Source: an uncultured Actinomycetes bacterium
Lineage (GTDB): Bacteria > Actinomycetota > Thermoleophilia > UBA2241
DNA: 64,000 nucleotides
Reading direction: 5' to 3'
Assembly (NCBI GenBank): GCA_963725665.1
Contig: CAVRZA010000004.1
Coordinates: forward strand, 589,834 to 653,833
Under the pieces are notes generated by a model that saw only the letters and a list, made by a program, of their open reading frames with translations, was not told the origin of the DNA and made no database searches. A program made the position numbers and the translations under genes. Position 1 is the first letter of the stretch. The number at the start of each line of letters is the position of its first letter. Below are positions 44,386 to 47,915 of the stretch, piece after piece.

Positions 44386-45951
44386 CTAGAGCAGCTCGGA
44401 CAGTCCCGCCTTCTGCTTGCCGCGCAGGGCGTCGGGCGCCGGCAGGCGCCCGACGCGCATGAGCGCGGCGAAGGCGCCGGTCTCTGCGCTCTGCGTGCCG
44501 CACGCCGCCACGAGCCTGCCGCCCTTCGCGTAGAAGGCGGTGAAGTCGCGCTTCTCGATGTCGCCGCAGACGATGAGGTCGTCGAAGCCCTGACCCGCGC
44601 CGACGTAGTCGAAGGCGCGGGTGAACTGCTGCGTCCAGAAGAACGGCACGCCGGTGAACGGCCGGCCTCTGCCGGCCATGGACGCCGCAGCCGCCCGCCC
44701 GAGCTGTTCGGCGAGGCGCCAGTGCTCGATGCGCACGCGCTCGCCGGTGTGGGCCTCTGGGTAGCGCGCGACGTCGCCGGCGGCCCACACGCCGGGCGCC
44801 AGGCGCAGCTCCTCGTCGACCGGCAGGCCGCCGTCCGCGTCGCGCGGCACGCCCCGCACGAACGCCGTGTTAGGCACGACGCCGACGCCGACGACGACGA
44901 CGTCGGCGGGGAGCGTCGAGCCGTCGTCGAGCTCGACCGCGGCGACCGTGCCCTCACCGGTGAACCGCGCCACATTGCGGCCGAGGCTAAACCGCGTGCC
45001 CTTCTTCTCGTGCAGGTCCATGATCGTGCGCCCGACGGGCTCGCCCAGGACGCGCGCGAAGGGCACGGCGTCGGGTCCCACCACCGTCACCGACAGACCT
45101 CGCGCCAGCAGGCTGGTGGCGACCTCCATGCCGATGAAGCTCGAGCCGACGACGACGGCGTTCGTGGCGCCGTCGAGAGCCGCGATGATGGCCTCGCAGT
45201 CGTCCCAGGAGCGCAAGGTGAAGACCCCATCGAGGTCGGCGCCCGGGATCTCCAGGAGGCGCGGCGAGGAGCCGGTGGCCACCAGAACGGCATCGGCGGA
45301 GAGGCCGGTACCGTCCGCGAGGGTGACCGTGCGCGTGGGCACATCGAGAGCGGTGATCCGTCCTGCTATGCGCTGGACGCCGCGTTTCTCGTAGAAGCCG
45401 GGGGAACGCAGCGGCAGCCAGTCGGCCTTCATCTCGCCGGCCAGGTAGTCCTTGCTCAGGTTCGGCCGGTCGTAGGGCCAGCGGTCCTCCTGGGTGATGA
45501 CCAGGATGCGCCCCTCGTAGCCCTCCTCGCGTAGGGCTTCGACGGCCGTCGCCGCGGCGGCACCGCCGCCCAGGATGGCGAAGGTGCGTGGGTCGCGCGA
45601 TGTGTCGCAGGTAGAGTGGGGCATCGGGCGCTGCGACTTGGCGTCGTCGGGACGGTCGACGTAGATGTCGCTGCCCTCGACGCGCACTGTGAAGCTCGGG
45701 ATGGCGTCGAGCGGCGGCGGTTCGAGCAGGTCGCCGGTGCGCACGTCGAAGGTCCCCTGATGGTAGGGACAGGTGATGCGACCGTCATGGAGAGTGCCCT
45801 CGGGCAGCGGGCCGCCGTAGTGCGGGCAGCGCGCGCCGGTGGCGTGATGGGCGCCGTCGACCTTGGCCAGCAAGACCTTCTTGCCGCCCACCTCGACCTG
45901 CTTCATCTGCCCGTCCTGGAGCTCCTCGGTGCTTGCCACGCGCTCTTCCAT
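44386..45951 (-). CDS. Rieske [2Fe-2S] / FAD-dependent ferredoxin reductase fusion (AIFM3-like)
   Basis: 'CPHYG...CPYH', 'LGGGAAA', 'PYDRPNLSK', 'RIEHW', 'VPFFWT'. Confidence 0.92.
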   Translation of the reverse strand: MEERVASTEELQDGQMKQVEVGGKKVLLAKVDGAHHATGARCPHYGGPLPEGTLHDGRITCPYHQGTFDVRTGDLLEPPPLDAIPSFTVRVEGSDIYVDRPDDAKSQRPMPHSTCDTSRDPRTFAILGGGAAAATAVEALREEGYEGRILVITQEDRWPYDRPNLSKDYLAGEMKADWLPLRSPGFYEKRGVQRIAGRITALDVPTRTVTLADGTGLSADAVLVATGSSPRLLEIPGADLDGVFTLRSWDDCEAIIAALDGATNAVVVGSSFIGMEVATSLLARGLSVTVVGPDAVPFARVLGEPVGRTIMDLHEKKGTRFSLGRNVARFTGEGTVAAVELDDGSTLPADVVVVGVGVVPNTAFVRGVPRDADGGLPVDEELRLAPGVWAAGDVARYPEAHTGERVRIEHWRLAEQLGRAAAASMAGRGRPFTGVPFFWTQQFTRAFDYVGAGQGFDDLIVCGDIEKRDFTAFYAKGGRLVAACGTQSAETGAFAALMRVGRLPAPDALRGKQKAGLSELL

Positions 45952-46085
45952 GCCTTCGTCTCCCGGTCGTCAGGACGGCCGCGCGGCCCGGCGCCGCGCG
46001 TGTCGTTGCGCCGCGCGGCGCCGGGCCGCGCGGCGGACCCAAGCCTACTACAGACCGTTGCGGCGCAGTCCGCGGCTGTCCGGCG

Positions 46086-46439
46086 CTAGTCGGTGTCGAG
46101 CGGCGCGCCGCGCTGGCGCTTCTTCTGCGCGCGGCGCGCCTTCTCGACGAGGCGCCGCTCGACGGCTGCCGTAGAGGGTCGCGTCGGCCGCCTGGGCGGC
46201 GCCTCGTAGGCCAGAGTCTCGAGGCGTTCGCGCAGGCGGCGCAGGCAGGTGGTCTTGTTCTGGAGCTGGCTCCGCCGGGCGCGGCAGGTGACGACGATGC
46301 CAGTGGGGCGGTGGCGCAGGCGGACGCCGCTGTCGGTCACGTTCTGGTGCTGGCCTCCTGGTCCGCCGGAGCGAAACGTCTCGACGTCACACTGCGCCAG
46401 GAGCTCGTCGTCGGACTCGGATATCTCTTCCGCAGTCAT
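46086..46439 (-). CDS. arfB: ArfB-like ribosome rescue peptidyl-tRNA hydrolase
   Basis: 'RSGGPGGQHQN', 'RSQLQNK', basic tail 'RRPTRPS...RRLVEKARRAQKKRQR'. Confidence 0.82.
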   Translation of the reverse strand: MTAEEISESDDELLAQCDVETFRSGGPGGQHQNVTDSGVRLRHRPTGIVVTCRARRSQLQNKTTCLRRLRERLETLAYEAPPRRPTRPSTAAVERRLVEKARRAQKKRQRGAPLDTD

Positions 46440-46534
46440 CCTGCCTCGGAGTCTTCCACCCACCGTCGAGGCCCGCAAGCACGCCACCCTTGAGCTGGGT
46501 GCACTGCGCGCTCCTTGGGGGTACACTTGCGGCG

Positions 46535-46590
46535 GACCCGCGAGCGAGGAAGGCCCTTCGGGGCTGTAAAGCTCACGGGTCTTTGTCGTT
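46535..46590 (+). ncRNA. Candidate small RNA mimicking 16S rRNA helix 16
   Basis: GACCCG-C-GAGC-GAGGAAG-GCCC-TTCG-GGGC-TGTAAA-GCTC-A-CGGGTC then TTTGTCGTT; TACACT -10-like box at 46522. Confidence 0.5.
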
Positions 46591-46679
46591 CGCTGAAAGT
46601 CCTCTCCGTTCCACGACGGGCTCCCAGGTGCGCCGGCCGGTCCTCACCGTTCGCCCGCCGACGCTCGTCGCCTGGCCGC

Positions 46680-46746
46680 CACCGAGTCATCGGGGCGGGC
46701 CCTCGTCAGTCGCCGTCACCGACTCATCGGAACGAGCCCTCGTCAG
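46680..46746. repeat. Imperfect direct repeat (30 bp, period 37)
   Basis: caccgagtcatcggggcgggccctcgtcag vs caccgactcatcggaacgagccctcgtcag. Confidence 0.65.
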
Positions 46747-47915
46747 CCGGCCTCGGTCGAGACGGGGTAGATGGTGCTCTCGTTGAGGTTCGTCACGACC
46801 CTGCGATAGCCGCACAGCTCGGCGTTGAGATCGTCGTCCCCGGTGTCGACCAGGAGTGGGCGCTCCTCGAGCGCGAGCAGCTTCTGATGGGTCGCTACGA
46901 CCACGATGTTGTCCAGGCCGACCTGGCGCAGCACGCGCGGGCTGATCTGCTGGTTGCCGCGTCCGAAGATGTGACCCTGGCCGCCGATGGCCGTCACGAC
47001 GACGGTCGCCGGCCGCTCGGCCGTGAGCCGCAAGAGGTCGTTCTCGCTGACGTCGCTCGCGACCACCGCGCGCTCGCCCACCACGTCGACGCCTAGCAAC
47101 GTGTTGGGCAGCTCCAGGATGCGCATGATGCCGCGCGTCGTCGTGCCGGGTCCGATGACATAGAGCCGGCCCGGCTGCATGCCGTTGACGACCTCGCTGG
47201 CGATACCCTCCAGGGCTACGGCGTCGCTTCCGCCGGCGCCGGCCTTGGCGCTCTGCAGGAGGTTGCGCTGGTAGGGCACGCGCAGGTAGCCGTAGAGGCG
47301 CGCCGAGACCCGATCCTCTCTGAAGGCCTCCTCATCGATGTCCATGACCTCGGCCTCACGCAGCTCTACGCCGCGCGCCTCAGGCCTGAAGAAGAGAGCG
47401 GCGAGGTCGCCGGCCGCCGCCGGCGTGGTCGCATAGACGGCGGAGTGGATCTTGACCCCCGCCGGGATGCCCAGCGTGGCGATCTCTGTGCCGATGGCGT
47501 CGTAGATGTTGCGCGCGGTGCCGTCGCCGCCGGCGAAGAGCAGCAGGTCGACACCGATGTCGCGCATCGCGCGGGCCGCGTTGACGGTGTCCTCGGCGGT
47601 CGTGGCCGGCGCGCCGTCGGGCAGCGGAGCGCCCCACGGCGCGCCGATGACGCTGTCGAGGACGCGGGGCGTGAAGCCGGCAGCGACGGCCTCGTCGGCG
47701 CCCATCTCGCCGGGGCAGGTCACGAGGTCGATGTCGCCGGCCAGGCCGGCGAGGCGCGCGAGGGCCTGCTGGGCGCGGCGCGGGCTCTCCCGCGCCGCGC
47801 CCAGCTCGAGCGCGCGCCGCAAGATCTCGATGCCGTCGCTTCCCTTGAGCCCGACGCGGCCGCCGACCCCCGCTACGGGGTTGACTATCAGGCCCAGCGT
47901 CTTGCGTTGCGTCAT
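46743..47915 (-). CDS. ATP-NAD kinase family (AcoX-like) protein
   Basis: 'GLIVNPVAGVGGRVGLKGSDG', 'FAGGDGTARN', 'GIPAGVKIHS', 'GRGNQQ'. Confidence 0.88.
   Translation of the reverse strand: MTQRKTLGLIVNPVAGVGGRVGLKGSDGIEILRRALELGAARESPRRAQQALARLAGLAGDIDLVTCPGEMGADEAVAAGFTPRVLDSVIGAPWGAPLPDGAPATTAEDTVNAARAMRDIGVDLLLFAGGDGTARNIYDAIGTEIATLGIPAGVKIHSAVYATTPAAAGDLAALFFRPEARGVELREAEVMDIDEEAFREDRVSARLYGYLRVPYQRNLLQSAKAGAGGSDAVALEGIASEVVNGMQPGRLYVIGPGTTTRGIMRILELPNTLLGVDVVGERAVVASDVSENDLLRLTAERPATVVVTAIGGQGHIFGRGNQQISPRVLRQVGLDNIVVVATHQKLLALEERPLLVDTGDDDLNAELCGYRRVVTNLNESTIYPVSTEAG

Follow-up and report, generated by a model that had tools for sequence, protein, structure and literature searches.

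What is a copy of a ribosomal RNA (rRNA) hairpin doing in the short space between two protein genes? The DNA considered here is a stretch of 64,000 nucleotides (nt), hereafter the window, from the genome (G000) of an uncultured soil bacterium (Actinomycetes) of the class Thermoleophilia (assembly GCA_963725665.1, contig CAVRZA010000004.1, positions 589,834 to 653,833). Within it, a spacer of 303 bases separates two minus-strand genes, one of the NAD-kinase family and one resembling the ribosome-rescue gene arfB. On the plus strand of this spacer stand, in order, a promoter-like box, seven further bases (46528-46534), a hairpin and a short T-rich tail. The original prediction, made from the letters of the window, was that the hairpin imitates helix 16 (h16) of 16S rRNA and acts in trans as a decoy or sensor for ribosomal protein uS4, in connection with ribosome quality control. 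We find that the mimicry is genuine: the hairpin reproduces h16 of the organism's own 16S rRNA with its structure preserved, and it is present as a single copy in G000. The elements in question are:

46519 to 46527, plus strand: -10-like box GGGTACACT, which holds TACACT at 46522-46527 (read directly)
46535 to 46581, plus strand: whole hairpin GACCCGCGAGCGAGGAAGGCCCTTCGGGGCTGTAAAGCTCACGGGTC, 47 bases (read directly and folded)
46542 to 46574, plus strand: h16-like core (from covariance model R1 and alignment to the own 16S)
46582 to 46590, plus strand: T-rich tail TTTGTCGTT, possible end of a transcript of about 50-55 nt (read directly)

The hairpin is closed at its base by a clamp of six base pairs (bp), 46535-40 pairing with 46576-81, followed by a C/A mismatch at 46541/46575. 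The core inside the clamp has a 4-bp lower stem identical to that of the own 16S, an internal loop of GAGGAA opposite GUAAA, a 5-bp upper stem and a UUCG end loop, and so contains all parts of the h16 motif (GANGAA opposite GUAAA, a 4-bp lower stem and an upper stem capped by UUCG). The folding energy is -36.7 kcal/mol on the plus strand (z -3.1 vs shuffles) and -32.1 kcal/mol on the minus strand (z -3.15 vs shuffles).

The organism's own 16S gene lies on the same contig (G000:C4:390660-392209), 245 kb from the hairpin, and its h16 reads GAGCGAAGAAGGCCTTCGGGTTGTAAAGCTC (L009:1908-1938 in the fetched locus). Four edits separate this helix from the core, every one of them preserves pairing, and the internal loop is retained. 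One is an A-to-G change at the third position of the 5' loop strand, which is the one loop position that varies in the consensus line of the Rfam small-subunit (SSU) rRNA model; this only loop change in the hairpin also falls at a position that varies among the larger mimics described below. Two are a C and a G inserted opposite each other, giving one extra pair in the upper stem, and the last, T to C, converts a G-U pair to G-C. The mimicry is thus closer than the generic comparison behind the original prediction had shown, and the longer upper stem that it described, with matching internal loop and tetraloop, comes down to that one extra pair.

To weigh sequence and structure together we used a covariance model (R1) built only from true h16, in the two variants that 31 16S genes of the family contain. 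The element matched it over the full model length with 36.5 bits (E 1.1e-8 in the window, searched without filters), whereas the runner-up in the window had 13 bits. Across the whole genome, E<=10 was reached only by the real 16S, with 51.4 bits, and by the element, with an E of 6.3e-7. The E-values are approximate, and the choice of h16, out of about a hundred rRNA hairpins, was made after the event. Allowing for this post-hoc choice of one helix, we put the probability of chance at a few per cent.

Might an ordinary G+C-rich UUCG hairpin nevertheless have come to resemble h16 by accident? An edit-distance control lends this idea some substance. When 1707 31-mers, taken at every third base of the 5.15 kb rRNA operon, were compared with the genome, one other 31-mer had a non-rRNA place at 4 edits and 16 had one at 5 edits, the exact h16 register not being among the sampled 31-mers and its neighbouring registers giving 5 edits. 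The other matches of the control, however, were G+C-rich (0.58-0.87, against 0.52-0.55 for h16) and did not preserve structure, whereas the hairpin's edits all do. The A+T-rich letters of the loop are also rare in a genome with 68% G+C, like the window itself, and the structure-aware score finds nothing comparable outside 16S. We therefore regard a chance resemblance as barely credible. As a separate observation, a 31-mer of the 16S-23S spacer (rRNA-operon offset 1716-1746) has one other place in G000 at 5 edits, over an A+T-containing stretch, and is possibly a remnant or second copy.

In line with the original prediction, the hairpin does not belong to an rRNA gene. We ran the Rfam check that had been proposed, S4 leader and SSU models included; with Rfam 15 at E<=10, positions 45500-47500 gave 8 weak matches (to microRNA and long non-coding RNA models), none of them on the element, and there was no match to an SSU rRNA model or to an S4 or alpha-operon leader model in this interval. 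We rejected a 16S rRNA gene or gene fragment because the flanks, which are unlike those of h16 in 16S, do not continue as SSU rRNA. When the rRNA operon was aligned to the genome by blastn under short-query settings, the element was not reported, because its two indels break the alignment. A leader of rpsD, the gene for uS4, was likewise rejected: in agreement with the statement that no rpsD follows the hairpin, this gene lies on another contig (G000:C2), 13 nt after rpsK in the alpha operon (infA-rpsM-rpsK-rpsD-rpoA), where it has no leader of its own.

Do related bacteria carry similar elements? We searched 89 genomes of the family, G000 included, with R1, and found non-16S matches of 30-38.6 bits in 10 of the other 88. 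The carriers are 8 of the 12 genomes of one genus, 1 of the 54 of another, and the only genome of a third. All ten matches belong to one conserved free-standing RNA of about 131-156 nt, which we call the mini-16S RNA:

Locus positions about 2476 to 2631 in L174-L179 and L181-L184: mini-16S RNAs of genomes G070, G010, G045, G019, G043, G044, G022, G046, G047 and G001 (alignment A3, model R2)

The layout begins with a GGGTA box, a gap of 6-7 nt, the 5' strand of a 17-bp closing helix and a short junction resembling the 16S bases before h16. There follow an h16 with the same internal loop as 16S, a different lower stem and a variable end loop, an h17 cut to its base, an h18-like arm and the 3' strand of the closing helix. 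Three of the genes end with a G+C hairpin and a T tail, predicted to be terminators, and these tails are similar to TTTGTCGTT. The fold (RNAalifold and pair counts) is well supported by covariation: 95.9% of cells are paired, vs 42-55% with the partners slid, and 9 pairs are changed on both sides, vs 1-4 with the partners slid. One G-U pair in the h16 stem is kept in 10/10 copies. Rfam labels one copy as SSU rRNA positions 401-535 (65.6 bits), 5 bases standing where the model has 33 positions of h17, and real 16S genes, including that of G000, match the mini-16S model R2 at 32-37 bits. Across the 16S genes of the family, the window hairpin and the ten mini-16S RNAs, the h16 internal loop (GANGAA / GUAAA) is invariant while the stems differ.

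An ABC-2 permease gene precedes the mini-16S RNA, whose other neighbour is a convergent secreted-protein gene, so that no gene lies downstream of the RNA on its own strand. Its distribution is narrow. A search with R2 found it in no further genome of the family, it occurred in 0/126 genomes of ten other families of the class, and of 185,579 species genomes exactly nine contain its 23-nt signature, each of them one of the ten carriers. The family is absent from Rfam 15, and we found no description of it in a full-text literature search that had most subscription journals outside its reach. Two multi-genome covariance searches missed the element of G000 itself, which was found by a single-genome search, so that "not found" in these two is weak and the exhaustive h16 pattern search described below makes the better negative. 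We set aside the weaker R1 matches of 23-28 bits (L185-L193), which are G+C-rich, coding-like sequences without the GUAAA loop. One further match, L180 (G013:C54:14-44), lies at the end of a contig in a piece of 16S whose h16 differs from the family's, and is probably foreign DNA in that bin. In six loci (L176-L179, L181 and L182) a G+C-rich inverted repeat, with 12-bp arms in L177, follows AACGGC about 10-45 nt upstream of GGGTA. This repeat could be an operator, or the terminator of the permease gene; we found nothing similar to it in G000.

The window hairpin is not itself a four-helix mini-16S RNA, and we rejected this assignment: positions 46516-46635 score 18.1 bits with R2, mostly from h16, vs 100-148 bits for the 10 members, and the lower stem is of the present 16S type rather than the mini-16S type. 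Two traits that it does share are the invariant internal loop and the GGGTA box 6-7 nt before the base helix. G000 has no mini-16S RNA that the R1 and R2 searches could find, nor is there such an RNA at the counterparts in G000 of the mini-16S neighbourhood (after the ABC-2 permease gene, or beside the secreted-protein gene ending WGTGNF..LL).

The shared box bears on transcription. The TACACT at 46522-46527, correctly noted earlier as lying 7 nt upstream, gains weight as part of a longer box, GGGTAnnnT, which ends 7 nt before the hairpin, as GGGTA stands 6-7 nt before the base helix in 10/10 mini-16S RNA loci. The 3.73-Mb genome contains GGGTAnnnT 382 times, both strands counted (5.1e-5 per position-strand), and by our own estimate the chance of such a placement before the hairpin is about 5e-4. 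The box also lies 12-20 nt upstream of 3/52 tRNA genes of G000, vs 0.32 expected, and for this reason it is a plausible -10 element. A scan of 46000-47000 for the sigma-70 consensus found no promoter. Among the tRNA predictions of G000, ARAGORN reports a tRNA with a CUA anticodon at G000:C6:343702-343774 (labelled Pyl) and a tRNA-Sec at G000:C11:550041-550138.

Which ribosomal protein might read such a hairpin? Protein uS4 nucleates assembly of the 30S subunit on the five-helix junction of 16S rRNA (h3, h4, h16, h17 and h18), and it has further roles in repression of the alpha operon and in rRNA antitermination (PMC10931766). A 200-nt five-helix junction (5WJ) RNA binds S4 at about 1 nM, and S4 touches bases and backbone in the loop region of h16 (Bellur and Woodson 2009, PMC2665224). 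As described there, truncation of h16 or deletion of h3 or h4 ruins binding in vitro, which requires H3, H4 and junction residues besides H16.

The explanation that we favour, tentatively and at somewhat less than an even chance, is that the locus encodes a tiny plus-strand RNA, made from the GGGTACACT box, that presents the h16 loop to a protein, with uS4 as the prime candidate. The hairpin would have been derived from, or kept in likeness of, the own 16S h16, and maintained as an RNA structure. Transcription would start at or next to the first base of the clamp, and the T-rich tail of the hairpin itself might terminate it, so that the RNA, at about 50-55 nt, would consist of hardly anything beyond h16 and its clamp. 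Support for the plus strand comes from the G-U pair beside the loop (G52-U65), which is present only when this strand is read. Such an RNA would display the internal loop to a protein that recognises this loop within the ribosome; the partner is likely to be of this kind because the loop is invariant in 16S, the hairpin and ten mini-16S RNAs while the stems differ. Since the junction is missing, binding to uS4 would probably be weak, and the RNA might act as a weak or partial decoy or competitor. It would be a functional cousin of the mini-16S RNAs and not a structural member of their family, and its position beside arfB would be accidental.

A number of observations weigh against this explanation. 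The first concerns the partner: among the requirements for uS4 binding given in PMC2665224 (H3, H4, H16 and junction residues) the hairpin has H16 only, and binding of uS4 by the hairpin alone is doubtful. A trans-acting mimic of the uS4 site, as originally predicted, is nonetheless made credible in this lineage by the mini-16S RNAs. In addition, the bare sequence likeness is near the best chance level of the edit-distance control. The tail TTTGTCGTT is weak, with T at 5 of its first 8 bases, the first of which is C in the contigs of two other sequencing runs (X1 and X4, below), and a terminator scan, whose stem model has no internal loop, did not call the hairpin and its tail. The distribution is also unfavourable. 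A strict h16 pattern found only 16S genes in the 88 other family genomes and no second genome with the hairpin form (each of the 89 has one place, in 16S, except G000 with its extra copy and one genome with two 16S ends), and the variant with a 5-bp stem had 0 matches in the 185,579 species genomes.

The remaining points against it come from strain variation, where the data on the hairpin are mixed. Sequence of the window is shared with 20 sequencing runs, with shares of at most 0.26, and we compared X1, X3, X4 and the RNA run X20; X3 and X20 do not cover the element, and X20, the only RNA run compared, covers 46736-46973. The contig from X4, whose coding flanks are 4-10% different, spans 46530-46675. 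In favour of our explanation, it shows no itemised difference in 46530-46581, against T to C at 46582 and 19 inserted letters plus most of its 10 substitutions in the flank 46599-46675. As 5 of the 10 substitutions are itemised, identity of the hairpin in this contig is probable, and that it is no firmer than this also counts against us. Further on, 31 other letters replace 46676-46739, leaving about one duplication unit fewer. The contig from X1, 97.6% identical in the neighbouring gene, keeps only 46557-46589 of the hairpin region, as if 46524-46556 had been deleted. By this single contig, with a depth of 2.7, a close strain appears to manage without the 5' half of the hairpin. The X1 contig also skips the 83 bases 46590-46672, and this part of the spacer is dispensable in that strain. 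The duplication just mentioned is a tandem repeat of 37 nt in the window (46675-46746; 1.9 copies, 85% match), which includes the stop codon of the NAD-kinase-like gene.

Much of this would fit a neutral relic. Some fragment of 16S, or what is left of a mini-16S gene after its decay, would have been captured at a rearranged junction; it would be young and without function, and would form a hairpin for no other reason than that h16 does. The junction between the NAD-kinase-like gene and arfB is indeed lineage-specific, the spacer holds a tandem duplication and strain-variable indels, and the element is missing from the 88 other family genomes and, as to its 5' half, from the X1 contig. In its lower stem and loops the hairpin hardly differs from the 16S that the organism has today, which is what a recent copy would look like. 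A raw copy, however, does not explain why the upper stem has a paired insertion and a G-C pair in place of G-U, why a 6-bp clamp begins one mismatched position outside the ends of the copied helix, or why a GGGTAnnnT box stands at the spacing of the mini-16S RNAs. The X4 contig, moreover, retains the hairpin while its flank diverges, and the mini-16S model sees no remnant of the other helices. We consider a relic unlikely, though far from negligible. The hairpin may be an independent, more recent and more radical reduction than the mini-16S RNAs, or it may be such a relic.

Both neighbouring genes are read from the other strand:

46086 to 46439, minus strand: arfB-like gene, 117 amino acids, RF-1 domain with GGQ (Pfam PF00472, E 4.9e-24), divergent from the plus strand of the hairpin
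46743 to 47915, minus strand: NAD-kinase-family gene (Pfam PF01513 and PF20143), its stop 161 nt from the hairpin

It is therefore worth asking whether the hairpin works on the minus strand instead, as a cis element (a terminator, attenuator, processing site or stabiliser) in a transcript running from the NAD-kinase-like gene into arfB, with the likeness to h16 reflecting its origin only. In a variant of this idea, a plus-strand RNA would be a cis-antisense partner of the arfB leader. The hairpin would lie within the intercistronic RNA of the two genes, the C/A mismatch becomes a U-G pair on this strand and so yields an unbroken 11-bp stem, and the minus-strand fold is as good as the plus-strand fold by its z-score. 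Against this, the minus strand has a C/A mismatch where the plus strand has the G-U pair beside the loop, its fold is less stable by 4.6 kcal/mol, and no T tract follows the hairpin there. The retention of the h16 loop letters would also go unexplained, the promoter-like box is on the plus strand, and no comparable hairpin was found at other arfB loci (0/29 and 0/80; see below). We judge a minus-strand role to be quite improbable. An Arg-rich minus-strand open reading frame of 84 amino acids (46436-46690), which contains the hairpin and overlaps the arfB start by ATGA, was rejected as a coding frame because the 19 letters inserted within it in the X4 contig are not a multiple of three.

How much does the neighbouring arfB gene matter? 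The hairpin lies 95 nt from the arfB start and is divergent from it, which agrees well with the distance of about 100 nt given earlier, and the original prediction made of this adjacency a uS4 sensor or decoy tied to ribosome rescue. Physical adjacency is all that speaks for the tie. The gene arfB is present in 89/89 family genomes, and among the 30 best-scoring arfB loci of the family (one of them G000 itself, none from genus g2) neither TGTAAA nor GTAAAG occurred within 450 nt upstream of the gene, on either strand, in the 29 others. An h16-like element was also missing from 80 metagenome arfB loci (0/80; best 82% identity over part of the protein), where a loose h16 pattern gave 3 matches, all in A+T-rich unrelated sequence. 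The gene order itself is particular to this lineage: the NAD-kinase-like gene stands in tandem with arfB only in G000, is convergent with it in 3 genomes of one genus and lies outside the locus in 26 others. When the 306-nt intergenic stretch was compared with 41 genomes by BLAST, nothing matched at the element (query 96-142), and the weak matches in 17 of them covered G+C-rich parts only (query 39-67 and 173-301). A check of synteny between the h16-like element and arfB in other genomes, which had been suggested earlier, found none, and the larger mimics stand beside the ABC-2 permease and secreted-protein genes instead. With no synteny in 109 other arfB loci, we abandon the proposed link to ribosome quality control as very improbable.

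What then is the hairpin worth? By itself it is a lineage-specific oddity, and its value is that it led to free-standing mimics of the 16S junction. A functional hairpin would show how far such a mimic can shrink, and a relic would illustrate a way in which such genes may come into being or decay. A broader reading would be that this Thermoleophilia family evolved free-standing mimics of the uS4 nucleation site, with four helices in ten genomes and h16 only here, which act in trans to buffer or sense free uS4 or another assembly factor of the 5' domain. This reading is possible, if doubtful. Were it true, a decoy RNA would be linked to ribosome assembly, to alpha-operon feedback or to rRNA antitermination, and these RNAs would be the first mimics of rRNA to act in trans on a ribosomal protein, the natural equivalent of the S4 site as minimised in the laboratory. 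The ten mini-16S RNAs in any case offer a compact natural model of the uS4 site, and their natural variation separates what is kept from what can be lost: the internal loop of h16 does not vary, the stems covary, and h17 and the loop of h18 can be dispensed with.

Comparison with known systems places the two kinds of RNA differently. With h16 of 16S rRNA the hairpin shares the lower stem, the letters of the internal loop bar one variable position, the UUCG loop and one of two G-U pairs. In 16S this helix opens into the five-helix junction, whereas the hairpin is free-standing, has an upper stem longer by one pair, is closed at its base by the 6-bp clamp, and has no h3, h4, h17 or h18. The mini-16S RNAs are better compared with the laboratory-minimised 5WJ RNA. 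As that RNA is described (PMC2665224), they make the same tolerated cuts, with h17 truncated, the 530-loop of h18 altered or removed, and h16 left whole; that these cuts are made and h16 is kept whole argues that the mini-16S RNAs, as candidate uS4 ligands, may be read by uS4. The 5WJ RNA has h3 and h4, however, both of them needed in vitro, and in their place the mini-16S RNAs have one long closing helix. The window hairpin keeps h16 only.

Imitation of rRNA by RNAs that bind ribosomal proteins is already known from cis-acting leaders of ribosomal protein operons. The S4-responsive RNAs described in PMC7247131 are cis leaders of rpsD or of the alpha operon, among them the alpha-operon pseudoknot of E. 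coli and the rpsD leader of B. subtilis, and candidate S4 leaders come from Bacteroidia, Clostridia, Flavobacteria and Fusobacteriales (PMC7247131, PMC10931766). The common idea is an RNA outside the ribosome that is read by uS4. These leaders sit upstream of rpsD or the alpha operon, whereas the hairpin is far from rpsD and has no match to an Rfam leader model. A stand-alone gene that imitates a protein site of rRNA would be a different use of mimicry, as a decoy or buffer for a primary assembly protein. Parallels here are 6S RNA and CsrB, small RNAs that sequester proteins. The likeness is that a stand-alone RNA mimics the nucleic acid to which a protein naturally binds; the proteins and the folds are others, and the partner of the hairpin is a candidate only.
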